64,000 nucleotides of DNA from Psammoneis japonica (taxonomy: Eukaryota). Both the position numbers and the translations under genes were made by a program. Location of the stretch: NCBI GenBank assembly GCA_008632985.1, contig QPGO01000288.1:1-64000 (forward strand), read 5' to 3'. The notes under the pieces are model-generated. The model searched no databases. It was not told the origin of the DNA and saw nothing but the letters and a program-made list of their open reading frames with translations. Positions within the stretch are counted from its first letter, which is position 1; each line of letters opens with the position of its first letter. Shown piece after piece: positions 5,775 through 61,429 of this stretch.

Positions 5775-6043
5775 GGTCAAGATCAATGAATGAGGACGAG
5801 TTGTGTGATGTGTGATTGAGGCGTGAGGCTGATGACGACTTGCATCGTACTGTACAGACAGATGCTCGGCAATGTGAAAACACACACCTAATGATCGGAC
5901 ATGACAACACCACCGCAATCGCACGTAGAAAAGGACGTGAAAAACGTACTGACGTCCCCACGTACTTTGTCCCGTATCTTTTTACGTTCAACGCCGTTCG
6001 TTGGCACAAACACTGGCGATTGTTGCTGCCGTTCATCATCACC

Positions 6044-6425: not shown

Positions 6426-6701
6426 ACGAGCAAACCGATTGCTGTTATCCTCCGTCGCTGTAAATTTCCTCTTCTTTTAGTAGATATTCAATTGAAGATA
6501 CTACTACCTTTTCGAACTTTTTGTTATTTGTTGCAAGCGCCCATTGTGTGCATGGAGCGTTTATCTTTTTTGTTTTGTGGGACCTGTGCTTAAGGTATTG
6601 CTCAGGATTGCAAAGAAAATGTTATGATGATTACAGTACGTTCGATGATTAGACAAAATTGATTAACATTTTCTCCGTCAGGTTTGCTTGTGAACACACG
6701 T

Positions 6702-25915: not shown

Positions 25916-26962
25916 CATCTCCAAATCTGCTCCATGGCTGCCATGCCCCCTTGACAATGGGGGTGGCAATTCAAAGAGGTGTGTGCTGTTCTCAAGACAG
26001 AGCTCATTCTTCATGCAGCGACCGGCTGTTGTGGCTCTGGCACAGAAATGTTCTTGTGAAGTTTTTGAAGAATGGCTCATTTTTGACTTGTGCACAAGCC
26101 TGTGAATGACATGATCACCTTGTGCTCTAATGCAAAGCATTCTGGGAGGAAGGAAACTTTGTTGGGGGAATCCTCAAATGGATTGCTCTTTTTTGTGAGC
26201 ACTGCTCGTCTGTTGTGACTTGGCTCTTGTTGGCGGGGCAGGGTGTGGCTCGATTTGGGGTGCCCTTGCTTTGGGTTTCATCAGGTTTGCGTGCTTCATT
26301 GCAAGAATTTGTGCTCTGTAATGTGAGTCTGGTGCACAGCTCCTGTGAAAAATGTGTGTGTCAGCGGTGCTTTGCCAAAGTGCTTGTGACTGTTCTTGTT
26401 TGCAGCAACTGAGGAGCTTCGCCAACTCCAAGCAATCAAGAGGAAAAGAGCTGGATGTTTTCAAATGATGTGGGGCTGGTGACCCTGATGACTTGAGACT
26501 TTTGTTGAGGTTGGCTTCTTTGGGATGATGCGACATCAAAAGTGTTGGCTCATGAGTCAATTCATCCGAAAACAAACATCTCCCAGCAGCTCTGACGTCA
26601 AAGGCTCAAGAATTGTCTCTTGCCTTCACCATTGGGCTGTGGTTCATTCTGCCCTACAGCAGCTAGCACTACTCTCTACTCTCTACTAGAGAGTAGAGAA
26701 CTCTACTCTGCAGCTGAATGCTCTACTCTGCAGCTGGTCTTGTCCATGTTCTTGTGCACGATTCTGCTTCTGCGAGCCATGCGAACCACTGTACAGTGGG
26801 GCTACTGTATGAGAACTTCCGATTTGAGTCGTTTCTGAGTCGTGCTTGACTAATAAATATATTCAGGTCCGTAGTTTCTTTTGTCCTCTCTGATCTCGGG
26901 CCGGTCTCACGTCTCACGTACGTCCTGGGTCCTGTCGTCACAAAAAGCACCGCTAAACGAAA

Positions 26963-34300: not shown

Positions 34301-36433
34301 CCAATTCCTTGGCCGCCTGCTCTTCCAGCATAACTATTTGCTGCTGAGCCTCAGCATTGTCACGAAGCTCCTTGAGGACAAGCTCGTCGTCTTCGATTTC
34401 GCGTTTGAGCTCTTCAGATTTGCTTTCAATGTTTCGAATCTTGACTTGAGCGTCTGATTCTTTCTGTTCCTTGTTGAGCGCTTCACGCTCTTGGGCTGTA
34501 TAATTACAAGACAGATGGGCAGAGTTCAACGTGAGATTCAAAACAAATCCTCGAGGATTCAAGGCACAAGCCATACTGTCCGTACTTACCAATCCTGATG
34601 AGATCGCGTTTTGACTCTTCAATCTGAACAGCGAAAGCAAAACAGTATTGTCGAATGTTAGAGAGCCAAATATTACAACCGGGAAGGCCGATTCGACAAT
34701 CTTACCTCGCTCTTGCGCATCCTTGGGCCGCGATGAGTCTCCCTGGCCAACGTGTCAATTTCTTGCCGTGCTTCTTGGCGCTGCTGCGCAATCTTTTTTC
34801 GGTCTGCTCACCACAAAGCAAATACATAGTCGCATATATAAGATGCGCTTTACAAAAATCTCAGAAAACACAATCGACTGCGTCAATTTCGGTCTTACCG
34901 TTCTCGATTGACTTTTCCTTTCCGATCGCGTCTCCCAAGACAACTTGAAGCTGGTCTTCGGCGGCCTGAGACTTTTCACGAAACTGCTTGAGTTCATCCG
35001 TAAGCTCCCTTTCCTTTTGTTCCAGAGCTCTGGTAAAGGCCTGCATGTCTTCGGGGGAAATGGAAATGATGCTCCCCTGCGTTCCTCCACCCGCCGTCGT
35101 GGTGTCATCTTGAGATTCCTGAGTGCCGGTGAGCATGGTGCCTTGTGTCTGTGTCACGGCGAGATTGATGCTGTAAGTGTGAGCCATTTGTTCCATCTTG
35201 GAAAGACGGGACCGTAGCACCTTTTCGTGCGCCTCTTTTTCTGCCTCGAGCTTGCCGAGCTGTCCCTGTAGCTGCATTTCTTCTTGACGATAAGACTGAA
35301 TCTTGTTTTGTAGCGACTGAATGTTCCTCTCGAGGTCTTGTTTCTGCTGCTCTTGATCCGCGACTTGCTCGTCAAAGTCACTTAGCATATCCTTGAGTTC
35401 ACGAAGCGTGTGTTTCTCGGTAAGATTCTCCTGCAACATTTCCAGCTGCGTGTTGGCCTTGGTCCGTTCCCGTTCGAGCTCGTTTTGCTTGACTTCCAAA
35501 TCGTCCACGGCCGTTCCTATTCGGGAGAGTACGTCATCGGCACGACGAATCTCGTCATCCAACCCGTTAAGCTCTTCCTTGATGGTAACAATCTCTTCCT
35601 CAATCTCTTCCACTTGCTCATTGTGCTGCTCGAGTTCCTGACGACAAAGCTTGGCCGCGTGTTGGTGACTCCTGAGTCCCTCCACGTCGGCCTTGAGATC
35701 CTTGGCCTTGGCAGCATAGTCCTTGCTTGTAGCACGAATCGCCACGAGTGCCTTGGCGTATTTGGTCGAATCAAAAATGTCATCAAAGCGCTTCTGCAAG
35801 ACGGCGCCCTCCATGAGCGGCCAGGACGAGTCTTCTTGATGACAAAACATAACATGCTCCAAGACGGGTTTCGTCACCCCCATGATGGACGGTATTTGTC
35901 GATCGAGTTCGGTACACTTGTGAGACATGCTGATGCGTTCTCCCGTTTCGGGATTGTTGGAGCGTAGCACCCCGTCTAGAGCCTTGAAGCTGAGCGTCGT
36001 TTTCTTTTGCTGTACTTCCATACTTCGACTCACCACCATGGTGTTTCCGAGGCGATTGGTGAAGCGGAGCTTGATATTGGCCTTGACGACGGACTGGCCC
36101 ACGCTCTTGGGGTCGTGCACAAAGGCTTGGCCCGCCTTGTTACCCGGGGGTAACGAACCGGTTACGGCGTACTTGAGACTCTCAATGATTGTGGTCTTGC
36201 CACAGCCGTTGGCCCCGACAATGACAGTGACGGGATAGAAGAATTCAATCACCTTATGGTATCATATGGGAAGAGAGGATAGATGCATGGGTTCGTATGG
36301 GGTTTGTAAGGATCAATCTTAGCAACAGCAATGCGATCACAACGTCGAGAACACACACAGTTCGTACCTGCTCTTTTTCATCGGGCGAAAACGCACGCAC
36401 GCCTCGAATAGACAATTTGTTTATGGACGCCAT
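31316..36433 (-). CDS. RAD50: DNA repair protein RAD50, multi-exon
   Basis: Exon 1 [17 protein letters not shown]; Walker [23 protein letters not shown]; long coiled coil; zinc hook CPCC; signature MRGRCSAGQ; Walker B ALDEPT; ITHD; last exon ends DWDEL* at 31316. Confidence 0.96.
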
Positions 36434-37249
36434 TACACAATCCTTGCCTTGTTGTCACAACGGCGTTACGTATGGGTACAATGCTCTCAGCAACACAAGT
36501 CTGTTCACGCCGTTTTGTTTGTTGACTTCTGTCGTCAATCGCGGTCTGCGGCTTTGGAGCTTTTCGCATCCACTTCTTGCGATCTTTTCCTCGCGCGCGA
36601 AAATCTGCCGGGAAAAAGGCGCGCACGAGCTCCGAACGCGAAAAAGGCACGAGGCGATGTCTTTCGAGCCCATTTCCACCTCCTGATTTACCTGACTTTC
36701 GCTTCTTGTCGGTGCTCCCCTCCATCGTTGCTGGCAGATGATGGCAGATAGAGGCAAAAGAGTTTGATGAAACAAAAAAGAAAAAAGAGAGAGATAAAGA
36801 TTGAAGATGAGAAATGAGGGTCTGGGGTCGTGGGTGGGTGTTGTTCTCGGTGTCGTCGGATCGGAACTTTGTGACCTGATGACATCATCATTCCACCAAA
36901 AAACAGGTGAGGTCACTAAAAAATCATGGCGAGAGGGCAACAGGTGCATTGTTGTTGCATGCTGTAACAACTGTTCCCCTCACTGACACCCACTTTGTCT
37001 CTGTTGATCACACAGCCCAACGTGTCTTGTTTGAGCCTGATGCGACGACTGCGTTTCGCAGTTTGGCTTGTTCTCATTTTCTTGACATGCAACACTGACG
37101 CATTTTTAGAACCTTTTTGATCTCGCTCCACTGGCAGCTTTTGTTGCAATCCAACAACTTCTGGTTGTTCAACATGGACTTTTGACGATGGAGCCTGCAA
37201 GGAGAGAGCATGGTTCATGCGCCAGCAGCATCAAACGTGCTGGGCCGTG

Positions 37250-39752
37250 AAGGGACAATCTCATGAGGCCCGGTGGCAAAATCGATTCCAAGAACTGGTT
37301 GAGTTTCACGAGAAAAATGGGGACTTTTGTGCACCCACAAAGACTCCTTTGGGTGCGTGGACAATCAGACAATGAAAGGCATGCCGAAAAAAGTTGCAAA
37401 ATGGCAAATCAGTGCTCACCGATGCTCAGGAAGAACAGCTTGGAGGAATTGGATTTAATTTCGAGTCATCAGGACAAACTGATCAGTGGAACCACATGTT
37501 TGACACGTTGTTGGAATTCAAGGAACTTCATGGCCACTGTCGTGTCCCGCGGCATTGGGTCACGAGACAGCGCAAGACTTGCAAGCATTGTCAAAACAAA
37601 AGCAAGCCTTGCTCAATGACTCCAGATTGTGTGAGAGCTCTAGAAGATGCAGGGTTTGAGTGGTCATTGCCAAAAAGAGGTGGTCTCGACCATGACAGGT
37701 GGGACCGCATGCTCGGCAAATTGTTGGAATTCAAAGCTGTTCATGGCCACTGTTGTTCCCAAAGCATTGTTCGGAAAATGAACACCTCGCACTTTGGGTC
37801 ACAAGACAGCGCAAGACTTGCAAGCATTGTCAAAACAAAAGCAAACCTTGCTCAATGACTCCAGATCGTGTGAGAGCTCTGGAAGATGCGGGATTCGAGT
37901 GGTCACCCAAAAAGGGTCCGGATTCCGATGGGAGTAATTGGAAGCGCATGCTTGATGAATTGTTGGAATTTAAGGCCAATCATGGGCATTGCCATGTGCC
38001 TTGCAACTACGTTGAAAACAGACGCATCACACGTTGGGTCACAACACAGCGCAAGAGCTGCAAGTGTTGTCAAAACAAAAGCAAACCTTGTTCAATGACT
38101 CAAGATCGTGTGAAAGCTCTGGAAGATGCCGGCTTTGAATGGTCGGTTAAAATGGGTCTGGGTCTCAACGAGAGTGCTTGGAAGTGCATGCTCAACGAAC
38201 TGCTGGAATTCAAAGCTGTTCATGGGCATTGTCGTGTCCCACAGCATTGTTTGGAAAACAAATGCCTCGCACTTTGGATCAGAACACAGCGCAGGAGCTG
38301 CAAGCGTTGTCAAAACAAAAGCAAGCCTTGCTCAATGACTCCGGATCGTCTGAAAGCTCTAGAAGATGCAGGGTTTGAGTGGTCAATGCCGAGAAGAGGT
38401 GGTCTCGACAATGACAGGTGGGACCGCATGCTCGATGAATTGTTAGAATTCAAAGCTGCTCATGGACATTGTCGTGTCCCAATGTCTCATTCGGAAAACA
38501 AAAGCCTCGCACTTTGGGTCATGACGCAGCGTAGGAACTACAAGCGTTGTCAAAACAAAAGCAAGCCTTGCTCAATGACTCCAGATCGTCTGAAAGCTCT
38601 GGAAGACGCAGGATTTGAGTGGTCAGTGCCGCGAGGAGGGGCTTTCGACAATTCCAGTTGGAATCGCATGCTCAACGAACTGTTGGAATTCAAAGCTGTT
38701 CATGGGCATTGTCGAGTCCCAACATCTTATTCGGAAAACAGGCGACTCGCACATTGGGTGATGAACCAGCGTGCATGCCTTAAGCGTCATCAAAACAACA
38801 AGCCTTGCCAGATCACACCTGATCGCATAAGACAATTGGAAGATGCAGGATTCGAGTGGTTTCGCAGAGACGCTATCAGCGAGGAGTGGAATTTGATGTT
38901 AAATGAGCTGTTGAAATTCAAGGCAATTCATGGCCATTGTCGTATCCCGCAGCATTGTTCGGAAAAGTTCTAACTACAAGAAGTTTAAAAACAAAGAGAA
39001 GCCTTGTCCCATGACGCGTGATCGGATAAGTGCATTGGAAGATGCCGGATTTGAGTGGTCGGCAACAACGCGGAAATGGAATGACTGGTTCAATGAGTTG
39101 TTGGAATTCAAAGCTACGCATGGGCATTGTCGTGTCCCCAATGACTCAGAGAATAAAGCCCTGTGTCGTTGGGTTGCGAGGCAACGTACGATTTCAAAAG
39201 CTGTCAAGACAATACCCAGCCATGCGCACATTGACGACAGACCAGATAAAAGCATTGGAAGATGTAGGATTTGAATGGTCGGTACAAGGAAAGGTATGGT
39301 ATGTTATGTTTGATGAGCTTTTGCGATTCAAAGCCATTCACGGGTATTGTTGCGTGCCAAATGTCTATCCGGAGAACAAACGACTCGCCCGGTGGGTTTC
39401 TCAGCAGCGAATACATTACAAGCGTTACCAAAACAAAAAGAAGCCTTGTTCAATGACGCCGGGTCGCATTAAAGCATTGGAAGGAGCTGGATTCGAATGG
39501 TCAGCGCAAACGAGTAATTGGAATGCCATGTATGATGAGTTAATGCAATTTAGAGCTGTTCATGGACATTGCCGTGTGCCAACCAACTACTCGGAAAACA
39601 AGCGCCTCGGACATTGGGTCGCGACCCAGCGTAGAAGTTACAAACGAAGTCAAGATAAAAAACAGCCTGGTTCATTGACTTTGGAACGAATAGCTGCATT
39701 GGAAAATGCCGGGTTTGAGTGGTCAGCCTATACTGTAACCAATAAGGTTTAA
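37250..39752 (+). pseudogene. Tandem helicase-associated (HA) domain protein, about 11 repeats, copy 1 (frameshifted)
   Basis: Repeated WxxMLxELLEFKAxHGHCRVP...L..WV..QR...R..ALEDAGFEW at a period of about 220-240 bp. Frameshifts near 37755, 38965 and 39190-39230. Confidence 0.88.
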
Positions 39753-41401: not shown

Positions 41402-41574
41402 CGTCACTTTTCGGTGCGGTGTTGTGCGGTGGCGGTGTTGTGCGGTGCGTGCGGAAGTGCCGTGCGCGTGACTCACCCACTCGTGACTCAAAAACAGACA
41501 CCATCCCAGCATCATTCAACTTTGACTCAACTGTGCCACAGCACATGTGGTCCCCTGTTTGCATCTTAACTGGT

Positions 41575-42095
41575 GCAAAGTCCCTGTCAATCTCTTTTGA
41601 GGCTGGCTCAGCCATCTCTTTTTCTGCAGCTGTAGCTTTGTCTTTCGCAATTTGCACTTCTCCCATGCAAGCAAAATTGAGGCCTGTTTGTTTCCGTTCA
41701 GTCCACCAGAGCAGAGGTTTCCACTCATCACCAATTTCTGGTCAGTTCTTGAGAAGAGAACAAAATTGCAGATTGTGTTGCGAGGGCTTGTTGTTCAAAT
41801 GCAAACAGCGTGAAATGTGTCGTGTTCATGCTCTGTCAAAGGACAGCTGTTGGAGCTGAGACCTGCTTCACAGCCAATGAAGATGAGCAGCAATGCCGAT
41901 TCCAAAAGTCGGTTGACTTTGAGGAGAAGAGTGGGCATTTTGTTGCATCAACAAGCTCTCCTTTGGGCTGTTGAAGTGACAAGCCAACAACACAAGAGAG
42001 CTCACTTGAAAAAATCGAGCAATTGCAAATCACCTGTTGCAGAAGAGCCCAGCTGAAAGACATTGGTGTTGACCTTCACCAACCTCCCTGAGATG
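41575..42095 (+). repeat. Third, truncated and more degenerate copy of the HA-gene 5' region
   Basis: Colinear similarity with 61185-61650 (aagtccctgtcaat..gctggctcag..gcagaggtttccactca..ctgagacctgct..tttgggctgttg..gagcccagctgaa). Confidence 0.75.
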
Positions 42096-42099
42096 TTGG

Positions 42100-45000
42100 T
42101 GGAGGTAAAAAGGATGGTGCAGACCAACAAACAAGGTTGCTTTCCAACTCTTTTTTTTGTGGACCAAAGTGCGCTGCCGCAGCATGAGGTCTCAACTTCA
42201 AAAGAGTTTGGCTGGCACCTGCAAAGATGGCTGAGTGTTGTGACCTCTCCCGTCCACAAGTCAAGCGCTGGCTGCAGGTCAGAGAGGGCTTCATCAAACT
42301 CCAGAATGACCTGGTCTCTGTCACTGTGATCTGCTTTTTTTGGGGGGGGGGGGGGGGGGGCACCGCTCGTTTCTGCCAATGAGCTGGTGCTCAAACTTGA
42401 GCTGCATGTCAAATGAGGCAAGGAATGGGCAACTGAAGTGTGGAGTGATTGAGCCAAATGTGCCAAACTTTGTTGCACATGTGTTGGCTGCTCTGCACCT
42501 CAGAGCAATCCATGCCAGGCAGCACTGCTGTTGTGTCAGCAATCCAAGGGTGGTGAGCATCAATGCGCTGCCCTTTCTTCTCGTTGCTCTGGTGCTTGGG
42601 GGATTGTGACATGTCATGCATTTGCACAATGATGCAACACAATGAACACAGCATGAAAACATTACATCATGTGTGCAATTTGTGTAAAATGTGCTTGTTG
42701 CTGGCAAATCTCTGCCGGTGGAGAGATTTGCTCCAAGGGAGCGGCACTTGCAGCTCTGTTGTGACAGCAACTCATCACAAATTTCATTGTTGGAGGTTGA
42801 GATTTTTTCCCCTCTCTGTCCACTGAGGTTGAGATTTCCCCCCATCTGTCCACAGATTGAGTGCAAGAAAAAAAGGAGTTAAAAGTCAACATTGAACTTT
42901 CCAAATTGTTGCAAGAATGGTCTCCCAGAGCTTTTGGTGAGTGCGCCATCCAAAACAAAAATTGTGCAAATTGTTTGTCATCCACATCTGAGAACCTTTC
43001 ATTTGACGCATTTTTGATGCAAGCATGCTCAAGTCTGGTGGTTGAAGGCTTGACAAATGGTTGCTGTGATTCACAAGCTCAGCCATTTTGGTCTGCTCAA
43101 GATCCCAAGGTGATCCAGCCCTCCAGACAGAACAGCAAAGCTGTCCAGCACATGGCTGGCATTGAGTGACCCCCTTGTGCCAGGGAGGTGCCTTCCACAC
43201 CCCACTTTGGAGACTCAAACATCATCTAGCCAGTGCAGTGCTGTGATTGTTGCCAGAGCAAAAAATTGGCTGTTGTTGTTTGAACTTTTCTGTTGTTTGC
43301 TGTTTTGGACATTTCTGCACTTCAGCAACTTCTCAGATGTTTCAGGTGCTCTCCCATCATTGGCAAATTTGCATTGCTGTTCCCTTTCTCAATGGCTTGC
43401 TGCAGCCACTCTCAACTTTGCTGCTGAGTGAACTGTGGCAACTGGAAACACCACCTTCACTGTCCTTCTGTCCATTTGGCTGGCATCACAGAACTTCCAT
43501 GCATGAAGAAGTGTCTCTCCCATTGTCCTTTTGTTCCTTGGAGTGTGCTCACTTGAAAGCACCACTTCCAAGCACTTTCTTGAGCTTTGATGCCATCCTC
43601 ATGGCCTGTCTTTGACTGAGATTTTTGCAAGCATCAAAAAAGATTGTTGCTTGCTTTGGGGGCTGAGGCACCACTTTGGCAAAGAGGTGCACTTGGAGAG
43701 TGCATCTGAAAAAAGTGCTGTTGCAGCAACTCTCAAGCTTGTCAAACAGCTCATTGACCTGGTGGTTGAACTCACCATCTTTGTCAGCAAAGACCACACC
43801 TCGGTTTTGCACAACTCTTGTGCAAAACAACCTTTCAAAGTGAGCACCACAGAGCTTGTGGAGGTGGCTGATCTCTTCATCTGCAAGCTTGGTTTTGTCA
43901 ACTTTTCTTTTGCAAATGCTTTCATGGCTGAAAGAAGCCTTTCTGAAGGGTGTCTGAGAAGTTGCTTGTGTTGCCAGGAAACTCTTCCACAAGAAACTGG
44001 GGCCATGACTCAGCTCTTGTGCACCTGCTCAGCACAAGAACCTCCTGCCAATGCACTTTGTGGCAGACTTCTGTTTTCCCAAACAGGGTGTTGATGTGGA
44101 GATGTGATCAAAAAAACAAGTGGAAAAAAAAAAAGTAATGTGATCAAACCCTGAAGTGAACATGATGTTGGCTGGTGTCACCTTGGAAGTCAGGGGCAAA
44201 AACAAATCCTTCCCCAGAGTTTATCTGCAAAGGGGCATTTGTGCCTTCTTTCAACAGCTCAGCCATGCTATCATTCTGTCCAATGATGTGTTGACTTTCT
44301 GTGTGGCAAGTTGCTCACTTTGAGGGAAGGATTTGTCAATGTTCTTGTTTCTGAAATTTGCAAGCTCCGCAATTCTTGAGGGCCAAACTGGTGCAGGCTT
44401 CAGGGCCTTTCTGAAGAAACATTTTTTCTGTCTTGCTTTGTTGTGCAAAGATGAACGGAGCTTTGAAACTGGGCTTCTTGTTGTGGGATTCCCAGTTCTG
44501 AGCTGTGATGGAGTTGCCCCTCTGGCGCAGTCTTCACAACAATGTGGCCTCAAACTCAGTTTGTTCCTTTGTGCTGCACAAGCTGAACAGAGCCTCTTGT
44601 GCTTGCAAAGGTCATTGTGCGGGTGCAAGGAAGCAATGTGCTTTGTAGGCAGCAGTTTTCACTTGATCATTGTGCTGGCAGTTCAGGCAAACCAGCTTTT
44701 CTCAAACTGTTTTCTCCCACTTGTGGCCAGCTGGGCCTCTTGACAAAATGGCTGCAAAGTGAACAAATGCAGGCACCCTCACAGTGCTTGTAAACTGCAT
44801 TTTTTTCATTGTCAAAGAGAGAGCAGACTCCCATTGCCCATCCAACTGCCAGGCACCAGCAATGTCATCCAGTGCAACCCTGCTGCAATGGTCTGCTCTT
44901 GAGATGAGCTGGGAAACTCAGAGGAAGAACTGCCCCACAGCAAGCTGGCTGGGGGGCAAGGAGAGAAAGCCAGCTTGACCCAAGACCAGCAGAGGTTCTT

Positions 45001-48000
45001 GGCCAGGGGGGGGGGGGGGGGGGGCATCTGCCCCAGTCTCTGGGCACTTTCCTGGTGCTGGTGGATGATGACAACAACTGCATCACCTGGGCTCTGTGGG
45101 CTGCAGCTTGGCTGACCCCACCTTGACACCAATGGCAAAAACAGCTTGAGCAGACACAGACAAAAGCTCCAGCAAGATGGGGAGGTGCAGGGCTTGTGCC
45201 CTTCATTTTGTTGACCATTGCAACAGCGCCCTTTTGCACTGATCAAACTCCACCCCACCAAGCCACAGCAAATTGAGAAACAACACCCACCCTCAGAAGG
45301 TTCGCCATCTGAGGCACTCATGGTTGAGATGAGGGGGCTTTTCACAAGTGTTGATTGTTTCACACAAACAGGAGTTGACATTTTCTGTTTGAAACAAAAA
45401 ATTGGGCCTTTACATCTTTTTTGTGGTTTCCTCCACCAGTGCAAACACTGTGAGCATGCCAGCTGGATCAGGAGTGACTTGGCTGCCTGCAAAGCAGAAG
45501 TGGTAACAACCAGGTGTGAAAATTTTTCCACACAAACTCTGCAAGAGAGTCCTGCAGAAGTGGTTTTCTGTGCACAAGAAATTTCCAGATGCAAAAGAAA
45601 AACAAGTGCTGTCAAATTCTTTGCATGGCCAGAATTGTTGCTGAGATTTGGTGAAGAGCAGAAAGCAAGAGAAAGAAAGAGTTGGGGGTGTGGCACAGAA
45701 AGCAAACACCTGTTGGTCAGTGCTGATGTGCCACCTCATTGTTTTGTGGTTCCATGTGGTGCAAAAAGGCATGTGGATTTAACACAGTGGTGCAGTTTGT
45801 GCTGGGGAGTTTTGCAGGACTGAACAGAGAAGCACCTTTTAAACTGTTGCTGTGCAGATGTTGGCACAAATTGCCGCAATGCATGCTCAAACCACTTTCC
45901 ACCATTGGTTTGGTTGTGAAATTTGTGCACTCTGCACATTCTTTGTGCTTGCAAGAGGGCAGCACAAGTCAGTGAATGAGAGTGCAGCCAAGAAGTGTGC
46001 AGCAAGAATTGACCATTTCCCCTCCCAGTGTGTTTTTCCTTTTGTGCAACAACTGTCAAATCAATGTGAAATTGTGCAGCAAGAAAAAAACGTTTTAAAT
46101 GCTGACAAGCACCCCACCACAAATTTGTCCCTCGGCTCAACAACCTGCTGGCCACACAAGTGTCAACGACTGTTCCTTGGGATGAACTGGCCTCCAACTC
46201 AGCTGCTCAGCACTTGCAGCATGACCCAGGTGCATCAATGTCTGATGCGTCTGCCACCCACCCCAGACCAAGGCTGTTGCCTCACATTTGAGGGTGGATC
46301 ATTGAGCAGAGGCACATTTTGAGCAGCTCATGATTTTGCAATTTTCCTTTTCTTCATTCAAGTGTTGCATCTGAGCACACCCCAAACACCAGTGAGTGCA
46401 TTTCTGCTCCTCACCAGGGCTGTGCACATGTGAGCTGCACTTGCCAGTCTTCAAGCACCAATTGTTGGTTTTGGCATGGTTGTTGTGCTCAACAAACTGC
46501 TGCTTTTTTTACACAACTGCGCTGCTTGGTTGGTGTGGTGTGGCAGACAAGCCAGAACAACTTTCCAGAAAATGCCAACAGCAAGCATTTGACTGGCTGA
46601 ACACATTGTGCAGTCACAACCATCATCCGCATGCTCTGTGGTGTCTCTCACAAACAATGGACAAAACTCAACCTGCAACTGAAATTCTGTTCAGGCAAAT
46701 GTGCACATTTGGCAAGATGCGCACCCTTCTTTCAGACCTCTTGAAAAACAGGCCTCTGCTTGACAATCCTCAATCCATTCTGAACTTGGACAGATTTCAG
46801 CACAAAGCTGAAATTCAGAGAAAAGGATCTTTGAACAATGACTGCACAATTTGAACAAACGAGAGGTCAAAATCAAGTGCAAAGTGCAGTCATTTGCAGT
46901 TGCTTGAGAGGAAGCAGTTGAAAATTCTGCATTCTGACAAATTCTGAGGCAGCCACAGCCTGTGCTCAGCACTCACCAACAGAGCAACAACATGACAGTG
47001 ACACAAATGTCATTCATTGAATGTGATGATGTGATTGGCATCAAATTTCAGCATGCATGTAAAATTTGTCAGTGTCTCAGCATTTTCTTTTGTGCTGGTG
47101 AGTGTCTCTTGGCCTCTTGGCTGGTTTGTGGCAACAAAGGCATGGGCAGTGAAGTGACAATCAAAAGATTGATTCACTTGGCTGCTGGTTTTTAAGATCA
47201 CATCTGTTGCAAGAGGTTTTAGAGCACTCAGGTTCAGAAGACAGGAATCCCAGGGTGGCATGTGTCAGTGAAGAGGTGCAACAAAAACAGCAGCACAATG
47301 AAAAGCTGAGGTGCACAAAGCAGTGGCAGTGGTTGCAGTCAGAACCACTCAAAGGCCTGTGTCCAAAACAGGATCCAAAAAGGGAAACTCCTCAGATGAC
47401 ACAGCACTGGCCTTTGTGGTTTCCAACACACCACACAGGGCAATTTTTGCACCATTTTTTTTCTGTTGAGGAGTGCACAGTGGGGGGGATGTCATGCAAA
47501 CATTGATCAAAATGAAGCAAGTGGAACAAAAATGACAAAGCCACCCATGACAACCAGAAAGCATTGGTTGGCAGCATCTGGCATGTCACAAACAAGTGCT
47601 GCAGCCCATCATGACCTCAGTCAGCCAGCTCTCCCCCAAGAGTTTTTGGTCTCAAAAGTGCTGCAAAAAAGCACCCACTTGTTGTGAGTGCCAAGCTGCC
47701 CCACAAAAGAACTCTGGAATGCCAGATTTGCTTAAAAGCAGTGCCAGGGCCCCAGTGGAAATGCCAAGAAAGTCCAGAATGTGGTGAATTTTTGATGTCC
47801 CTGGCACTGATTCTATGCTGGAGCACAATTTCTGCACATTCCAGACTTTTTTTAGCTTTTTTGCTGGGGCCCTGGTGATGCTTCCATGCAAATTTGACAT
47901 TCCCGAGTTTTTCTAAATGGCAGCAGGCTTTGGATCCTCCATGTGGGCAGTTTGGGACATGCCCTTCTCCATGCTGTGGCACTTCAAATTCAAAGCCTTT

Positions 48001-49200
48001 TGCATGGCTGCTCTTCACTGTGTCATGGCACCCCCTCTGTTCTCCACCACACCCTCTCCCAGCAAGGCACAGCAGCACCTGCATTGCAAAGCAACATCAT
48101 GGTCAGACAGCAAGCAGCAGAGAACAAAAAGTTGCAGCATTTGCAGCTCCCACCTTGCCAAAAGCAAGCATTTCTGCTGTTGCACAGATGTCAGCTCCTT
48201 GGGGGGCAGGCAAATGCATCGTGATGTCCTTGCCACTTGTGGCCATCAGGTGCTGTGCTCTTCTCTGCCATCATGGAAGCTTCACATCAAGCACACCTTG
48301 TGTTCCTGTTAGAAACAGCTTCTTGCAGTTGTTTGACAATGTTTGTGCTGCTCCAGCTCCATCTCTGACTCTGTCTTGCTCCTGTTTGTTCCCACGTTGA
48401 CTGTCTTTTGAGTTCAATGCAGCAGCAGCACTTGGTGTGGCAAATGCCAAGATGTGCTCCAGACCCTCCAAGATGACATGCATCACACTGGCTGCATGTG
48501 ATGAGGGATGAACAAGTGGCTCTTGGCTGAGAATGTGAGGTGCATTGCTTGATCCAGACACAAGGGGGGCTGCCCCCCCCCCCCCCACTTCTTGGTGCAG
48601 CAAGCTGGCAAGTTGCTGCCAAATCTTCAAGTGCTCTCAGCAAACCAACAGGCCTGCTCAATGAGCCCATGCCCTCACCAAAAATGTCATGCTTTTCTTG
48701 AAATGAGCTTTGTCCTCACTCAGAGGCCAGATCTTTGGAAAGCAAGACTTGCTTGCAGCTCATTGCTTGAAGCTCTCATCTCTCTGTTTTTGTCCTTTGC
48801 TCCTCCCAGCTGCCCCCCACCAATGCTTGACCAGCAACAACTTGGCTGAAGATTTTGTGTGCATTCATTGGAAGTGACCACCACAGACAATGGCCACGAC
48901 CATGATGCACGGCATTTGGCTTGGCAACTGGAAAGTTGTGGCTTGACTGCAATGAGTGGCACAACACTGGTGAAAAATGGCAGTTTGTCAAATGAGAACT
49001 GCACCAAATCCAACAATTGGCACTTGAGGTTGACAAGTGCAGTTCACATGTGCTCCGAGCAGGTCTGAACAGCCCTGATGGGGGGCAGACACACAAGTGT
49101 TTTGGGTGCTCAGATGCATCGCAAAATGACACGGGCGAAGTGCAGGAAAATTGGGCTGCTGCCAGTGCCATCCGGTTGCGCAGGAGCACCTCCTACTTAT
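42100..49200. mobile_element. Nested degenerate repeat/TE relics, families unassigned
   Basis: CpG and TpA nearly absent; many Tyr-free spurious ORFs. A TIR-like motif tgatgtggagatgtgatca at about 44092 is shared with 23612. Confidence 0.55.
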
Positions 49201-49400: not shown

Positions 49401-50806
49401 TCACGTAGAGATGCCTCTCTCTACCAAGATGGGCTCAGAGGCTTTTTCAGGCTTCCCACTGACTACATACTGCTCCGACGGTAGGGCAAGTATAATTTTA
49501 CTGCGTTGCAAAACAGCACAAATGAGCTTGAGCACTTTGTGTTGGTTTTCGAGAAAGGCCGTCCCTGTAGGTGGCAAGTTGTAATGAGTATCTATTGTAA
49601 TCTCCAAATGATCTTCACAGATATCGGTCAACAATGCTCGAAACGGTCTAGATTCATCCGATATTAATTCTGGACATGCTTTCTCAATCTCTTCCTTGAT
49701 ATCTGTACAGAATTTGGTAACCTTGTCCCAGTCAGAATGCTGGAATCGAAGCATCTTTTTGACACGGCATTTTTTCATCCGAGATAGGTTGCATATTCGG
49801 CGGTTAGCAAGTTGTTCATTCGGTATACGTGTAATGAGCTCATCATAGCCTTTTTTAATTGAAGTTTTGTGATACGTGATACCAGTATAGAGATCAAGCA
49901 GAGGGGAAAGTTAGTCCATGGAAGAGCTTTTACTGATTCCAAGACACATTTAGTGATTTTGCACTTCTTACCTCTAACATCCGTGTATAGCCATCCCAGT
50001 TTCTCAATCACGCCGCACGTATCAGTACCTAACTTGATGTTATCACCAACGTAAAAGTTTTCAGAAGTTGATACAGCTAATCCACTGACGAGTTGGCTGG
50101 CCAAGTCTTTCGAGGCCAATGAAAGCACCAAAGTACCCACACCACCGAATGCAAACAGAGATGCCAGACCTGGACCCAAATCAAAATCAAGAATATCCAA
50201 CACAGCAACAGCCAACGAGACGAGGATAAAAATATCAAGGATCCGGTCATAGACTCCAACTTTCCCAAGCTTGTTTAGTGGTCGACGGACCGCGAGGCAG
50301 AGAAGATACTGTTTAACCGTCATCAAACGAACAGCCGCCCAGGACATGTAGACTAACTGTGCGAATTTCAAACTAATTTCAAATTCTTTCAAGTCATGAT
50401 CCGGTGTGGCGACATCCCAAACAATGATGACTAAGTCAAAAGTGTAGACCAGACAGCCTAGTTGAGCAATCTGACCTGTCGTGTTGGCAACCATAAACGT
50501 CAATGAAGAGAAGAAGGGATCAACATCAGCGTCGAATTCACTCGAGTTACTTCTTGAAGACAGATTTGTAAGCTCGCCCGGTCCCTTGTTTCCACGAAAG
50601 TATAAGTCATAGATTAATCTGGATATAGGAAGAATTGCCCATCCCATAAAGATAAGTACAGCAATATCACCGAGCTGTATCGTTTCCAATAGTGCATTGA
50701 TGATATCTTCTTGGTAGGCGAGCAATGATAAATTTGAGAAACTCGCAAGGACTTGCCCTGCCAGCAGTGGCTTGGGCAGGTCTTCGTTCGTGTTCCCAAA
50801 ACTCAT
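49401..50806 (-). CDS. Small-conductance mechanosensitive channel (MscS family)
   Basis: FAFGGVGTLVLSLASKDLASQLVSGL..FYVGDNI..GVIEKLGWLYTDVRG, intron 49850-49971, then YDELITRIPNEQLANRRICNLSR. The true start may lie further upstream. Confidence 0.88.
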
Positions 50807-51398
50807 GTTATTTTTTAGTATCGTTCATCAATCGAAAGAATGCATGGGAGGAATCAATTCGACCAAGATGCAATGTATCGTTTCTCTTTTCTTGGTGAAC
50901 TTGGAATAGTAAGTTCCGTCCTGTTTGCTTGGTGTGTTGGTGTTGGGTGTTGAGTGTTGCTTGTTGCTTGTTGGTGGGAGTGTATGTTGAGTGGATCTTT
51001 TATGTACTGTCGAGAGCTCGAACTCACGTACTGTACGTATGTAGATTTTGGGGGGGCGTCTTTGGAAGTGAGATCGTCGAAGGCGGTCTGATCGCCAGTG
51101 CGTTTGGGGTTTTCCCAGTACAATTTGTACGCAAAAAAAACACGTAGGATCTGTCCAGAGGTCCCAAATACCCAATCGCACTGATTGACAGACTGTTTTA
51201 GTACAAAATCTACGTAACTTTCTTCGACAGTCTCACTTCCGAAGACGTCCCCCAATTTTGTACTGTGACATTCACGCAAAAAAGCGCGACAAAAGCAAGA
51301 GGATCTATCATGGTGCATTATCGGCAAAGATTTCATGATCGTGGCTGGTTGACGATAAGCCCATAACCCACATCAACAAATTACTTCGAGCCAAAGTA

Positions 51399-51599: not shown

Positions 51600-54500
51600 T
51601 TACATGTTCATTTGGAAATGTCAATTGGTTTTCTCTCTCTCTACATTCAATGCTCGCAACAATGCTGGTTTTCAGATCTCTGCATGGGCATCCAATCAAA
51701 ATGGACAATGCACACCTTTTGCAGCAAAGACAAATCAACCCATCTGGCATTGCAGCATCCTTTCAATCCACACTCAACAGAGGCGAGCACACGCCAAAGA
51801 CTTGCAGAGAGAACAAAAGGCTCTTGAGCACACAAAACAAGAACAGAGTTGATGCACCCCTCTTGTTTTGAAGCTTGGGCCCTCAAGTGGCACATGGTTT
51901 GGCTGGCTCTGCAGCTGGTTGGGAGGTTGATGGCTTTTTCATGACTCACAGCTTGAGGCTTCTTGTTGGCACACGAGCTCGCCCGTGCAATGTTGCCTTT
52001 CGAGCCTGCTGCTTGCTGGAGCTGAGATCATGTGGACAGCTCTCCACATGCCTGGGCTTTGTCATTCAAATGCTCAATCACAAAATCATCTTCTCTTGCA
52101 CTGTGGCTGCTTGGCTTTCATCAACAAAATCTGCAGCAGCCCAGGCCATCCTGAGCACTCGTGACAAAACAGCTCTCCTGCAAAACCCTTCTGCTTGTCC
52201 CTTCCCCCCCAGAGTGGTTCTTGGCAACAGCGCCACCCACAAACCAAGCTGCAGTCACGACTGTTTGCTGAGCTGCCAGCTGAGAAATTAAAACCAAGGT
52301 TGAGAGCCAAGCATGAGACCTCCTGTGAGATGTTCCCGCAACAAGCCTCTCCACAAAGCCGTGCTGCACATGGGGTCTGAAGCAAGAGGCACATGTTTTG
52401 ATGCACAAGCACATGTGCAATGTCACCTTTGGAGCACGCTGCTCACTGGAGCTTGAGCAGAGGACAGCTCTCTGTGTGCAAACCATGTCTGTCAGATGCT
52501 CAGTCACAAAACATCTTCTCTTGCTGTGGCTGCTTGGCTTCCATCAAAAGAAAGTTCCCACAACCCAGGCTGCCCCAGCCACCATTGACAGAATGGCTCC
52601 TGCAAAACTTTTCTGCATGTTTCCCTCCTCCCCTGCAGAGCTGCTCTTGGCAACAGTGTTGTCTGCATGCCAGGCTCCAATCAAGATGGTCTGCCAAGCT
52701 GCACCAGCTGAGATGCCCAACTTGAGTTTGCAGGCTCCCAGAACCACAAGACACACAGAGGGCAGCAATGCACATCTGGTGCTGGTGGCAATGCTGAGCT
52801 CTTCATTTGCAGCTTCCCAGGGGCACACCCACACCTTCAGAACACCAGCACAACCACAAGAGTTGCCCTCCTTGTGCAGTCACAACAGCACGTTGCACCA
52901 TCTGCAAAAGGAGTGCAGGCAGCCTGGCTCCTGGGCTGCATGCTGACCCCACATGCCACAGCTTTTCACAGCTGAGCAAGAGACGCCAGTGTTTCAAAAA
53001 CCCTGAGCCAAGGTTGGAGCTGGCAGGAGCTTGTGTCATTGGCACCCCCAATGCCACAGCTGCAAAATTGCACACAAGCCTCCTCAAGCTCGTGTTTGTC
53101 ATTTGTTGGCACAGCAGAACAACTTTGAGCTTGCTGTTGGCACAAAAAAGCTCTGAGTGAGGTTGGGCCCAAGAGTCATTGAGCATGCTGAGTGCACAAC
53201 CTGAGACATGCCAGCAACAAAACTCTCTGCACAGCAATGCAGCCAGAACCTCTCTCACTCTTCTCTCAAGAGCTTGCTCAGGACAACACACCAGGGTTTG
53301 GAAAGCAAGCAGCCAAGCTTGCATGTTTTTCTTCTCCCTGGCCCTCCCCAGATGCAGCCTTTGAGCCAATGGTCACCCTGAAGTTGCAATGTGCACCCAG
53401 CTTTTGCCCCTGTGGCAACCACCCCAGACCACAAAGAAGAAGCCAATGAATCTCTGGCCCTGCTTGCATGGTCAATTTTTGTGTGCATCGAATGGTTGAA
53501 TCCCCTCCTTTTTCCCTTTTCCATTGATCGGCCACGAATGTGAAAAAATTGCCGCATTGTGAGAGTGATTCAGCCGTGCCAATCAGATCAGAAGCTTCGC
53601 AGTGAGCGCCAACCTCTCACGCTCACGTTGGCAACAAATCATTGCATTGCGTGGTGCAACCTCGCTGCCGGTGCAGCACACCCTGTGAGATGACTGGCAC
53701 AAACGAACATCTTTCCGAGAAACACAACAAACACCACCATGCAGTTTTGACCTTTGATTTCACAATCATCCAACAAAGAACAATGGCACCAGGCAGGCAC
53801 CAAGAAAAGTTCAAAGCACAAGAAACAAAGTGGGAAGAAGTGGGCTGTGCTTTGAAAACCCAGGAGCAGCAGCCAGACGACAGCAGAGAGAGAGGAAGAG
53901 CAGAAAAATTGCTGAAAGATTTTGGCTCTCAGCAGTGGCACCACAAGCACTCAAGTCCCTCCCAGCACAGAGAAAATGATCTGCAAGAATTTGTGGGTGC
54001 AGAAGCACGGCAGCAGAGCCCACAGAAAGGAGGGGTGGGAAGCCCCCAGCATTTGTTGACCCCCCCTTTTGTTCCTGAAGGTGACAAGAGAGAGTCTGGG
54101 TTGTGAAGATGCAAGTCAGCCCAAAGACACAAGTGGTCCCAGCAGCTTCATGCAAAATGATCTCTCAGGGTCATTTGCACTTGGCTCTGGCAAGCCAAAA
54201 AAGGAGGCCTCCTCGTTGGCAGTGCTCCAAGTGCAAAGTTGCTCATTGAGCAGCTGGTGCAAGAAAGTGAGTTGAGCACTCTTGCTGCAGATGCCCAGAT
54301 GTCAACAGCATGTTCTTGCCTTTCTTGACACTGCTCCACATCCTCGTGATGGGGGACCTGACAATGCCATGGCCAGCATCACCCAGCATGCTGTTGTTGC
54401 TGCAGATCTTGGTGCCACGGCATGTGGTCACCTGCGGGAAAAGAGGGAGGCACACACATGTGCAGCCAGGGGCATCTTTTGAGCAAATCCAGCCATGCTG

Positions 54501-55330
54501 TTGCCAGTCAGACCTTTTGGCAAAGACCATCAATGTTGCTAAAACAGAAGGTCAGTGTGCAAAGCAGCCTCACAACTGCTTTAGAGACCTTGTCCTCCCA
54601 TTGATGTGCCTCACCACCAGCATTTTTTTGATGCTGTGGGGTCTCAGCAGCTCAGGTGATGCCCATTTTCTCTTGCAGATTGTGAGAAGCACATGGCGCA
54701 CAACAGTTTTGCACACTGGGCTTTGGCCCAGAGCAGCAAGGGTGATCTGTGATCTGGGCACATGGGTGCAGCAGGCCACAAAGACAGACAGCTCCAAGCA
54801 TGCCAGAAAAGTGCGCACTTCATGCTCCACTCCTTTTTGTCAACCAAAATGTTGACATGGCTGGAGCACTCTGTCAATGAGATGAGACTCCACCCCAACA
54901 TTGTGCTTGGAACACAATGCAGTGGACAACCAGGGGCATGTTGTTGATGATTTTGAGGTGACACTTTTTTGGGTCAAAGTTTGATCAAAAAGTGGATGAC
55001 ACAGGCTGTGTGCCATGGCCCACAATGACTCACTGACACAGTGTGGACTCTCACAAGAGGTTGGCCATGATTTCATGTGAGGAGAATGGTTCTGCCCCTG
55101 TGAATTGCCCACTGGTTTCTTAGAGTTCCAGGTTGCCATTGGCAGCCAAAGATGAGCAAAGACAGATGGAAGGTCTGGCTGCTGCTCTCAGAGAGTGTCT
55201 GCCAGATTTCAGCTCACCAGCAGAGAGCTGGAGCAACAGAGGGTGTTCATTTCATTCAATTGTGAGAGGGAGCGAGTCAGGACTGCAGTGCAAAATGTTC
55301 AAAGAAGTGCAGAAGCTCTCTCGTGGAGGC
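51600..55330. mobile_element. Degenerate TE relic block, including a possible DIRS/Ngaro-type RNase H remnant (+ strand, ~54100-54600)
   Basis: Same composition signature. Residual order CEDAS..G / GSFALGSGK / HILVMGD..N-AMA / INVA..HNCFRD resembles YR-retrotransposon RNase H (DAS..G, LxxxDNxxA, NxxADxLSR). Confidence 0.5.
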
Positions 55331-57295: not shown

Positions 57296-60019
57296 ATGTT
57301 TAAGTTGAAGCGATACGACGTTCTGATTCTTTCAGCATATCTCATGGCGATTCTTAATTTTGTCGGTACTGTTGCGAGCCAAAGCATCGCAACACCAAGA
57401 AGGACGCTTCAGGAACAGAATAATACAGGTCAATGCAACATTTGCCTGCCTGGATTTTGATTCTAAACAATACTCGTCCCAGAACAACAGAAGCGGCTGC
57501 CCGCGTATCCTTTGATAACGCAACAGCAGGCAAAGCCATGGTGCAGAACAACAACCTTACTTGTGCGGATTGGGCAACTTATGCGGAACGAAACGAAGGG
57601 TTTGACTGTCTTGCGCTACGTGACTGGCTTTTCCGACAATGTTGTGATAATGTGCCTCCTTTGTTTGAATGTGAAGCTACAATGAGAGAGGCTCTGCTCA
57701 CGGGCAGCAATGCGAGTTATGACAAGTACGTTCCACCCATTTCCAAAGGGATTGCGGTGAATGCTAGCTTGGTAGTGGAGCTCTTTGATGAAATGCATAT
57801 CGTCGATCATGGCATTGATGGTGGTGCCATTGAAATAGTAGGATCTCTCCACTTACAATGGACGGATGAACGGCTGAGGTGGAGTTCTTCCTCTATTGCA
57901 CCGTGCACAGGGTTTGAGGTCCGACGCACCGACATTTGGACGCCGCATCTCGTCCCTCATGATCAGGGAACAAGAGAGCCACTCGTCGACACAACGGCAA
58001 TAATTTTACCCAATGGAAACGTTTACTGGAGTCGACATGGTGCAATGCTGTTTCGCTGTAGCACCCAAAACAACGATGATGCAAAACTGTGTTCGATTCA
58101 ACTCGTTGACTCAGATCAAGGCGGCCACGTACACTTTATTCTGCGAGACATTGTGATTAATAACCCTCTTGGTATTCCAGAATATCGACTTAACGAGAAC
58201 AGTTCTATTTTGGATGCAGAGACAATTCAAAGTCAAGGCGTGACCATCCAGGAGGTGGACCTCGAACTTGACTTTTTGCCCTTGTCGGACGACTGCAACA
58301 TTTGCGGTGCTACAGAAGCCAAACTCTTCAACGGCACAATTCGAGAGTACCCAAAGGATTGGCTAGAACTCTATCCGGATACTGATGGATGGTCATGTAG
58401 CCAGCTTGACGCCCTCTTGATAAAAGAGGACGTCTCGACCTACGCATGTGAGATTGGCCGTGCGTTCTTTGAAGAGGCTGTTGTGATGACACGCGGGCAA
58501 ATTACGAGTGTGAAAGCCAGATCCATGATGCTCTTGTCGATAAGTACAATACCATAACTCCGGTCGATCCATCACCAAAGGAAGAAGATCCTTTCTTCAG
58601 CAGCAAAGATGCTGTCGACGTCAAGATTTCTTTGGATATCTCGCACGCATTGGAGATTGAAGTAAAGACAAACTCGATGCAGATTTTAATGTCGCTAGAG
58701 TTGGAATGGTATGATCCACGTCTTGTGTGGGAACCCTTTATTGGGGGTTGCCATCGATCTTCTTTCAGGGCATCGGTTGACGCGGAACAGACAGAACTGT
58801 GGGTTCCAAACATGGAGCTCGTAAATATGGTAAGGGGCGTTCAAAGCTTGCCCGAAGCACATGCGTCAGTGCGCTATGATGGATATGTGAAATGGAGGCG
58901 CACAGGAGTACTAGCAGCTATTTGTGATCTCTCTGGTATCGAAGACTTTCCCTTTGATAAGACAGGTAAGCGCCGTATCACGTCCACTTCAGGCTTTTGC
59001 CGTTTTCCTCACTCTTCGTTTTGCCTTTTTGTAGAATGTCACATGGAGTTTGGTGGCACGATGGATCCTCTCTATCATCGGGTCAATTATGTTCCTGCCA
59101 ATAAATCCGTTGAGTACAGCGCACGGGTAAGCGACAGCTCTTGGAATTACCAAGAATACAAGCTCGACATTCGCAAAACAAGAGTGTCGTTCAGAACTGA
59201 ACAACTGTCTGGGTTTGAGAACAAGCTAGTTCGTTTTGATTTTACGTTTGCGAGGGCGAAACGATACTACGTGTACCTGTTTGTTGCTCTCTACATTATT
59301 TTTACATATCTTGCATTTGGAATGTTCTTCGTCGACTTTCATCTGGGAGAACGACTGGGCTACGGTGAGTTACTTCACAGTGGCATCTTGTTACATGGCC
59401 TCTATGATATTTCCATTTCATCTCACAAAATCCTTTTTTCATACAGGTTCGTCTATTCTCTTTGTGATTGTTGCTCAAGACATTACATTGGCAGACTCGA
59501 CTCCTGTCACGCAGGAGTTTCTTTGGATTTATCGCCTTTCATTTGGATCTAAAATGTTTGTGGTGTTTGGAATTGTCGAGTCAATTATTGTGTTGTATTT
59601 TTATGCTCACAATGACTACGAGGGTGAGAGGGAAGAGCACGGAGACATTGAAGAGACCCGTAATCTGATTGACGACAGCAACAACAATAACAACAGCATC
59701 AACGCCCTGGAAAGTGGTACTCAGAGGGAAGATCGCGAATATACCGTTGGGTTTGACACAGAAGTGAACGTTGATAATGAGCAATTGGAGGAGTCGACCG
59801 CTCACCCCACTAGGGGAGCGAAAACGCAGTGGACGAAAAAAGCGACTGACGAGCTTGACATGGTGGAGCCATAGGCTTCTTCCTCAGGGACTTAATGAGG
59901 CTGATTCGAAGAAGAAAAGAAGGCTGAAAAAGTTGAGGACAGTGGACTACGCAGCAGCCATCCTGTTCTTTGTCGCTTATTCCATATTTCTCATTGTCAT
60001 GTTCATACTGGCTCATTAA
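57296..60019 (+). CDS. Pentameric ligand-gated (Cys-loop) ion channel subunit with two tandem extracellular domains
   Basis: Signal peptide from 57296. ECD1 has LQWTDERLRW, IWTPHL, PNGNVYW. ECD2 has LEWYDPRLVW, LWVPNMELVN, YDGYVKW and CDLSGIEDFPFDKTEC across intron 58966-59034. M1, GERLGYG-M2 (intron 59365-59446), M3 and M4 follow. Single-base frameshifts at about 57460-57530, 58478, 58560 and 59820. Confidence 0.85.
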
Positions 60020-60957: not shown

Positions 60958-61429
60958 GGTCAAGAATACCAACGTACCGGTAACCGGTAGACTATCTGAA
61001 TCTGGCAGACTAAAAGCCTAGATGCACGCAATGTCCGTTTGCCGACCTGGACCACGCGACGCGCACGAAACGCACACTGAACACGCAGCGCACATGCGAT
61101 CACATGATGAGCATGAACAAGCACTGCTGTACCAAGCACATTCCACTTCTGACGCAACTGTACCGCAGCATCTTACCTAAGTATGAAGTCCCTGTCAATG
61201 TCTCTTTGGAAGCTGGCTCAGTCATCTCTTCTGCAGTTTGTTCTTCGCAATCTGCTTCTGTGCAAACAAAAACGAGGCCTTTTCGCTTCTGGTTCAGTCC
61301 ACAAGCAGAGGTTTCCACTCACCACCCATTGGCAGATCGTGTTATGAGGATTTGTTGTTCAAACGTAAACAATGTTGAACGTGTTCGTGGGCTGTCACAG
61401 CACAACTAGAACTGAGACCTGCTGCAGCT

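Follow-up and report, generated by a model that had tools for sequence, protein, structure and literature searches.

A 64,000-nt stretch of the Psammoneis japonica genome (contig QPGO01000288.1, forward-strand positions 1 to 64,000; henceforth the window) contains four sharply bounded blocks in which the dinucleotides TA and CG are nearly absent and TG and CA are in excess. The TA steps that survive in these blocks obey a rule on their neighbouring bases, which grades TA loss by the base 3′ of A in the order T > C > G > A. No such purine/pyrimidine rule applies to the surviving CG steps, and the two losses are uncoupled between regions. On balance, the blocks are probably the saturated footprint of two mutational processes that acted on the same silenced, non-coding and partly repeated DNA, namely a TpA-specific A:T to G:C transition and a loss of CpG.

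Depleted blocks and the flanks of surviving TA

Dinucleotide observed/expected ratios (O/E), computed per 1-kb window along the stretch, fall into two states. TA O/E is about 0.4-0.8 and CG O/E about 0.7-1.2 in the normal state, and in the depleted state the values are 0.00-0.10 for TA, 0.02-0.25 for CG and 1.6-2.25 for CA/TG. A two-state hidden Markov model delimits four depleted blocks, to which strand does not apply: block 1 at 1839-3885 (2047 bp, 7 TA, 17 CG), block 2 at 19250-26654 (7405 bp, 23 TA, 46 CG), block 3 at 41483-49119 (7637 bp, 26 TA, 42 CG) and block 4 at 51656-55321 (3666 bp, 4 TA, 38 CG). Together they cover 20,755 bp and hold only 60 TA and 143 CG, compared to 1600 TA and 2355 CG in the 43,245 bp outside; typical block values are about 0.05-0.1 for TA and CG O/E and about 1.8-2.0 for CA/TG. 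The change between the two states at the block borders is sharp, within tens of bases, and the G+C content of the blocks (0.47-0.51) is about equal to that of the flanking DNA.

The 60 surviving TA are distributed over their flanking contexts (R, purine; Y, pyrimidine) as 32 Y-TA-R, 28 mixed and 0 R-TA-Y. For the composition inside the blocks, a first-order Markov model, which served as the composition correction, predicts 21.6, 28.8 and 9.6, respectively, and the probability of finding no R-TA-Y among 60 is 2.9e-5. The TA steps of the flanking DNA (n = 1565) comprise 240 Y-TA-R, 807 mixed and 518 R-TA-Y, a distribution that differs from that of the blocks with a chi-square of 70 (p = 6e-16). 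R-TA-Y is absent from each block taken separately (0/7, 0/23 and 0/26 in blocks 1 to 3; all four TA of block 4 are Y-TA-R) and from two further stretches depleted of TA only (0/17 in 36500-38750 and 0/9 in 61200-62500, together 0/26), that is, from all six depleted regions. Since R-TA-Y stands at zero against a Markov expectation of 9.6, and at zero in every region, the flank bias exceeds chance. An earlier note on this DNA had proposed, from inspection by eye of 45770-48320 (inside block 3; strand does not apply; 12 TA, 11 CG), that surviving TA is mostly Y-TA-R. This is the case for 9 of the 12 TA in that stretch, the other three being mixed and none R-TA-Y (Markov expectation 4.1 Y-TA-R and 2.0 R-TA-Y; P(≥9 of 12) = 0.005), as well as for the pooled blocks, and the seven TA hexamers that the note quoted are all present there.

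The TA tetranucleotides differ widely in their survival, by which we mean density relative to the flanking, mostly coding DNA. This relative density is 0.41 for TTAA, 0.31 for CTAA/TTAG, 0.15 for GTAA/TTAC, 0.07 for CTAG and 0.06 for CTAC/GTAG, falls to 0.025 for ATAA/TTAT and for ATAG/CTAT, and is 0 for ATAC/GTAT, ATAT and GTAC. All 10 classes are fitted by a Poisson loss model in which the T-A-n of each strand contributes independently and multiplicatively, with loss exponents of 0.33 for TAA, 1.05 for TAG, 1.85 for TAC and 3.32 for TAT. A two-class R/Y version of the model outperforms a flat one (likelihood-ratio p = 2.5e-16) and is itself outperformed by the four-base version (p = 1e-5). 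The TAY/RTA target put forward in the earlier note is thus a good first description, of which the four-base order T > C > G > A is the fuller form.

Survival alone cannot place the deciding flank at the mutated base pair or at the other pair of the TA step, and we therefore examined the products. A change of T-A-Y to T-G-Y predicts a gain of YTGY and RCAR over YCAY and RTGR. In six block segments this ratio, (YTGY+RCAR)/(YCAY+RTGR), ranges from 1.45 to 1.86 and pools to 1.70, and in 13 flanking segments it ranges from 0.97 to 1.63 and pools to 1.23 (Mann-Whitney p = 0.004). When the process is simulated on flanking DNA, the ratio comes to 1.37 with the near flank as the deciding one, 1.14 with the two products at 50:50, and 0.94 with the far flank as the deciding one. 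This strand-symmetric ratio was used in place of a k-mer distance, which favours the near-flank model only mildly. The product counts indicate the near-flank direction, T-A-Y to T-G-Y. Furthermore, TG and CA form no runs along the blocks (z from −1.6 to +0.5), so the two strands were hit independently at a fine scale, which speaks against an edited intermediate of single-stranded RNA or complementary DNA.

Surviving CG and the uncoupling of the two losses

The surviving CG steps behave differently. The 143 block CG comprise 27 Y-CG-R, 76 mixed and 40 R-CG-Y, for which the Markov expectation is 28.8, 70.8 and 43.5, and no R/Y flank rule is found for them in comparison with the flanking DNA (chi-square 2.3, p = 0.32). 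The relative densities of the three contexts (0.10, 0.12 and 0.15, respectively) show the opposite trend, if any. The claims of the earlier note that surviving CG is mostly Y-CG-R and that CGY/RCG are targets are therefore not borne out, either in the pooled blocks or in 45770-48320, where the 11 CG divide into 2 Y-CG-R, 4 R-CG-Y and 5 mixed (expected 2.0, 3.6 and 5.3). Among the CG hexamers quoted from that stretch, ctcggc and cccgag occur once each, but atcgag is absent. Likewise, a composition-corrected comparison of NTAN and NCGN tetranucleotides, as the note had suggested, upholds the proposed context for TA and leaves CG near expectation. The sole context effect seen for CG is better survival between G/C flanks: GCGC, CCGC/GCGG and CCGG make up 47 of the 143 block CG and 397 of the 2186 flanking CG (Fisher p = 6e-5).

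The losses of TA and CG are also uncoupled between regions. Two plus-strand stretches, each at the start of a gene with repeated helicase-associated (HA, PF03457) domains, are depleted of TA only. The stretch at 36500-38750, which covers the 5′ region and the first five 240-bp units of HA gene 1, holds 17 TA (0.19 of the flanking density) and 103 CG (0.83), and that at 61250-62500, which covers the 5′ region and the first repeat units of the paralogous HA gene 2, holds 9 TA (0.18) and 49 CG (0.71). Within the blocks, the proportions of survivors differ as well, with 4 TA to 38 CG in block 4 and 26 TA to 42 CG in block 3 (Fisher p = 0.0009). Two processes are favoured because CG lacks the flank context of TA and because the two losses are uncoupled.

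The single purine-pyrimidine mechanism suggested in the earlier note, which is not supported for the same reasons, has a more general form in which one activity erases both dinucleotides: a bifunctional ADAT2-like deaminase, or conceivably an oxidase of 5-methylpyrimidines (T and 5-methylcytosine) in palindromic Y-R steps. We regard this as unlikely. TA and CG do disappear together from the same four sharp blocks, both in favour of TG and CA, and a degree of preference for Y-C-G would fit the excess of the observed product ratio over its simulated value. In addition, C and A in DNA are both substrates of amphioxus ADAT2, with a preference for TCG in the case of C but for GAA, not TA, in the case of A, according to the available portion of that report (PMC10354150). 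But an activity that obeys an extreme flank rule on TA and no R/Y rule on CG, that removes TA about 5-fold from the HA-gene 5′ regions while leaving CG nearly intact, and that yields different TA:CG survivor ratios in different blocks is hard to conceive as one.

Probable conversion in place and competing explanations

The sum of Y-R steps is nearly constant, about 236 per kb in the blocks and 245 per kb in the flanking DNA. Per 1000 dinucleotides, TA+CG is lower in the blocks by 85.3 and CA+TG is higher by 75.6; CG amounts to 6.9 in the blocks and 55.4 outside, and CA and TG each to 113 and 75.5. This is the pattern expected if TA and CG convert to TG and CA, and the match between the CpG deficit and the TpG/CpA excess is that expected of methylation-driven CpG decay. 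Simulated mutation of flanking DNA matches the block values of TA, CG, CA and TG.

Three lines of evidence, each limited, suggest that the blocks mutated in place. First, block 3 shows at its start (41561-42095) a 70% alignment to 61168-61649, which lies upstream of HA gene 2, and on the strength of this alignment its first ~550 bp are a decayed copy of that DNA. CG in the 61-kb copy faces TG (10 cases) or CA (1) in block 3, and TA faces TG (3) or CA (1). Second, we compared the window with contigs assembled from a public sequencing run of one sample (X1), whose word depth (about 60) is equal over the blocks and over the genes. Window and contigs differ at 19 sites in 5612 bp of block 3 and, in flanking DNA, at 3 sites in 4320 bp (Fisher p = 0.004), a roughly 5-fold higher density in the block. 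Among the 12 block 3 differences listed, four are TA in the window and CA or TG in X1, with none in reverse (block 3 has only 26 TA); six are CG versus TG/CA, in both directions, and two are other changes. Three of the listed differences stem from one half-depth contig, which is probably an allele. These differences suggest recent or continuing change in block 3. Third, TA is scarce in the 5′ parts of the HA genes too, and the TA that survive there obey the flank rule of the blocks.

The alternative that the blocks are inserted foreign or selfish DNA, poor in TA and CG because of its origin elsewhere or because of selection, for example for avoidance of a nuclease or sensor, is quite improbable. 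It would account for the sharp borders and for the departure of other k-mers in the blocks from those of mutated flanking DNA. However, the blocks display no recognisable coding content for selection to act on: none of 238 six-frame open reading frames (ORFs; 105 of ≥90 amino acids, 133 of 55-89 amino acids) scored above the Pfam cut-off, the four weak matches being at chance level, and the longest block ORF (307 amino acids, 44815-45735, minus strand) found no match among 1.84 billion representative sequences. Comparison of the window with itself by BLAST revealed no terminal repeats at the block ends. An insertion is further at odds with the start of block 3, where a decayed copy of host DNA from upstream of an HA gene carries TG and CA in place of CG and TA, with the concentration of the listed window/X1 differences on residual TA and CG steps, and with the observance of the same TA flank rule by the host's own HA genes.

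A sequencing or assembly artefact, in which modified bases are systematically misread as TG or CA, might also place the listed window/X1 differences on TA and CG steps, but it has very little probability, given that the blocks are found again in the X1 contigs, with 19 differences over 5612 bp and at the same depth of about 60 as the flanking genes; the value of X1 as a control is qualified by the possibility that it is the assembly's own sample, its platform not being on record. An origin of the flank bias in block composition (few AT and many GC dinucleotides) or in chance is equally implausible: AT is under-represented in the blocks (48.8 versus 64.6 per 1000 in flanking DNA) and 45770-48320 offers only 12 TA, but the Markov expectation of 9.6 R-TA-Y already takes the within-block composition into account, and all six regions show zero.

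Several observations weigh against a reading of the blocks as the footprint of two mutational processes in place. The survival measure assumes that the blocks once resembled the flanking, mostly coding DNA. The simulation that reproduces TA, CG, CA and TG leaves other words unexplained: GC, AGC/GCT, CAG/CTG and AAA are in excess in the blocks, and AT, ATG/CAT and ACA/TGT are too few. At 1.70, the product ratio exceeds the 1.37 of the best model, which means that either the ancestor was unlike the flanking DNA or the conversion of CG is biased in a similar way. The evidence from the window/X1 differences rests on 40 of 225 rows and on one sample, X1, which may be the source sample of the assembly. 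A single founder repeat unit that was itself poor in TA could account for the TA depletion of the HA genes. Neither the Pfam search of the 238 ORFs nor the search with the longest of them gave any sign of viral or transposon genes in the blocks. Finally, a high-depth element at 51051-51255 keeps normal TA (8) and CG (13), GTAC sites included, so copy number alone is not the trigger.

Relation to known systems and other features of the window

In the mechanism that we favour, a TpA-specific A:T to G:C transition would act on either strand, turning TA into TG or CA, at a rate set by the base 3′ of the target A (T > C > G > A), with 5′-T-A-Y (R-T-A as seen from the other strand) as the preferred site. 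R-TA-Y, a good target on both strands, would be wiped out, and Y-TA-R, a good target on neither, would persist. CpG would change to TG/CA without an R/Y flank rule, most likely because 5-methylcytosine deaminates where silent DNA is methylated. What we infer here is which enzyme acts, what part methylation plays and how the blocks are chosen.

A literature search found no description of TpA-erased blocks in diatoms. The blocks are best read as a variant of the TpA hypermutation of the chlorarachniophyte Bigelowiella natans, superimposed on CpG decay. In mutation-accumulation lines of this alga, two viral inserts are hypermutated about 1000-fold, 230 of 231 mutations being A>G or T>C and all 230 falling on TpA; its genome carries 124 TpA-poor, CpA+TpG-rich clusters, and an ADAT2/TadA-like DNA adenine deaminase has been proposed, as stated in the main text of the report (Mettrop et al., 10.64898/2026.01.13.699255). 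As far as that text goes, the two cases share the change of TpA to TpG or CpA on either strand and the occurrence of kb-scale clusters in which TpA is scarce, CpA+TpG is abundant and diversity is higher. Two runs of 1-kb windows lie within the cluster thresholds given there for B. natans: 20001-26000 (TA O/E 0.01-0.08, CA 1.81-2.25, TG 1.41-1.98, CA/TG mean ≥1.83) and 43001-49000 (TA O/E 0.01-0.10, CA/TG 1.64-2.02). By analogy with this matching signature, the diatom enzyme may be an ADAT/TadA-like DNA adenine deaminase.

The differences from B. natans, again with respect to its main text, are that (i) the host here is a diatom, a stramenopile, and there a chlorarachniophyte, (ii) TA O/E is about 0.05 here and 0.45 in the giant-virus insert of B. 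natans, (iii) CpG is lost as well in the diatom blocks, while the term ‘CpG’ is absent from the B. natans main text, (iv) the target there is integrated viral or foreign DNA, whereas the diatom blocks contain no recognisable viral or transposon genes, and (v) the T > C > G > A flank rule is not described in the B. natans main text, in which the words ‘context’, ‘flank’ and ‘trinucleotide’ do not occur either, although its figures and supplements could show the flanks and bear on this point (10.64898/2026.01.13.699255).

Natural genomic A:T to G:C editing at TpA has been reported so far in one 2026 preprint and for one alga only. If our reading is true, the diatom footprint widens TpA editing to a major phytoplankton group. 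The T > C > G > A rule with independent strands provides a concrete specificity with which candidate deaminases can be tested, and the TpA process is separated from CpG decay within the same DNA. A bolder and more doubtful extension is that diatoms run an active, domain-targeted DNA adenine-editing defence, which converts the A of 5′-T-A-Y to G on either strand and is the same system as that of the chlorarachniophyte, dating back to a stramenopile-rhizarian ancestor. The T-A-Y specificity would then point to a TadA/ADAT-like enzyme, and in its boldest form the defence would remove CpG as well.

The adenosine deaminases ADAR, ADAT2/3 and TadA resemble the diatom process in that they convert A to inosine, which is read as G, and in that they favour U or T before the target A; the natural site of bacterial TadA is U-A-C. 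ADAR, by contrast, acts on RNA and prefers G after the A. In the diatom blocks, the order after A is T > C > G > A, with hits on both strands of the DNA that form no runs. Amphioxus ADAT2 differs in its preference for GAA on DNA, as given in the available portion of its description, in which TCG is the site preferred for deamination of C (PMC10354150).

The ascomycete process of repeat-induced point mutation (RIP) resembles the diatom case in its regional, saturating and dinucleotide-specific transitions in silenced or duplicated DNA with sharp borders. RIP converts CpA to TpA and thus enriches TpA and lowers G+C, whereas the diatom blocks lose TpA (O/E 0.00-0.10) at unchanged G+C and do not carry the RIP signature, and the very-high-depth repeat beside block 4 was left untouched. 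CpG decay in methylated transposons is similar in its conversion of CG to TG/CA without an R/Y rule and in somewhat better survival between G/C-rich flanks. It differs in that the CG O/E of the blocks (0.02-0.25) is extreme; methylation is presumed here. Diatom transposons are CpG-methylated via DNMT5a, and many diatoms possess DNMT4, which is related to RID, the RIP factor of fungi, and whose function is unknown, according to the part of the text available (PMC9998398).

Among 79 metagenome loci with relatives of purL (665 kb), only one stretch, at 5751-8250 of locus L041, shows a mild version of the footprint, with TA O/E of 0.12-0.20, CG of 0.31-0.59 and CA/TG of 1.6-1.7. R-TA-Y accounts for 1 of 27 TA in this stretch and for 46 of 275 elsewhere on the contig. 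We consider this case only suggestive as a further instance. The adjoining 2000-5750 is poor in CG only, TA being normal there, which is a further case of the two losses parting. The locus carries a diatom-like purL (70% identity), and an HA-domain ORF at 8382-8936 follows the TA/CG-poor stretch. No metagenome locus was recovered with the HA protein as query. The short and gene-rich contigs of metagenomes offer little chance of finding such blocks.

The HA paralogues of the window occupy 37555-39729 and 61646-63477 and consist of tandem 240-bp units that encode PF03457 domains. The first five units of gene 1 and the first three of gene 2 are alike and TA-poor (1-3 TA each), and the later units are more diverged (4-10 TA each). 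To judge by read depth, these genes may have 3-6 copies in the genome. Their paralogue identity is 76-83% in the TA-poor 5′ part and 93-95% in the 3′ part, with 10 and 3 CA/TG double differences, respectively. We discounted this contrast because the 5′ arrays differ in unit number, which invites misalignment, and because of the possible TA-poor founder unit.

By read depth, the blocks and the HA genes are partly multi-copy, and most of block 3 is at single-copy depth. X1 word depth reaches 275-450 at 51.3-54.0 kb, in and near block 4, compared to about 60 elsewhere. The element at 51051-51255, 400 bp from block 4, resembles a miniature inverted-repeat transposable element of ~205 bp with inverted ends of roughly 25 bp. 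It falls into a depth bin of about 5270 (about 85-fold above the level of about 60 elsewhere), and many loose read ends lie at its borders. Block 2 contains a 9-bp tandem array at 25176-25914 (TTTGGCAAC, about 79 copies, 63% matches), which produces a local excess of CA over TG and an A/T skew. In block 3, a run of six G is followed by a run of about 15 C at 48560-48590, and CCCC/GGGG and AAAA/TTTT are in excess across the blocks generally. As the blocks lack TAA and TAG stops, they contain long spurious ORFs, which calls for caution from annotators.

The TA/CG-normal parts of the window contain long ORFs that code for ordinary proteins of eukaryotes. Besides the two HA genes, these include an FGAR amidotransferase (purL), an enoyl-CoA hydratase, a Rad50-like ATPase, a sulfotransferase and Cys-loop channel domains. 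Among named sequences, the purL piece is closest to those of the diatoms Cylindrotheca, Fragilaria, Fistulifera and Thalassiosira (identity 77-80%), by which evidence the window is diatom nuclear DNA. The Cys-loop neurotransmitter-gated channel ligand-binding domain (PF02931) is found, in this diatom, in a pair of adjacent ORFs at 57424-59552. Scans of the 64-kb window for transfer RNAs and against Rfam gave no match. Contigs of a second run, X2, leave the blocks uncovered, a gap that carries no weight as to expression. They skip 115 bases at 36250-36366 and 122 bases at 49848-49971; the first of these has CT..AC ends, as expected of a minus-strand intron, and X2, although labelled ‘DNA?’, behaves like a transcript library.

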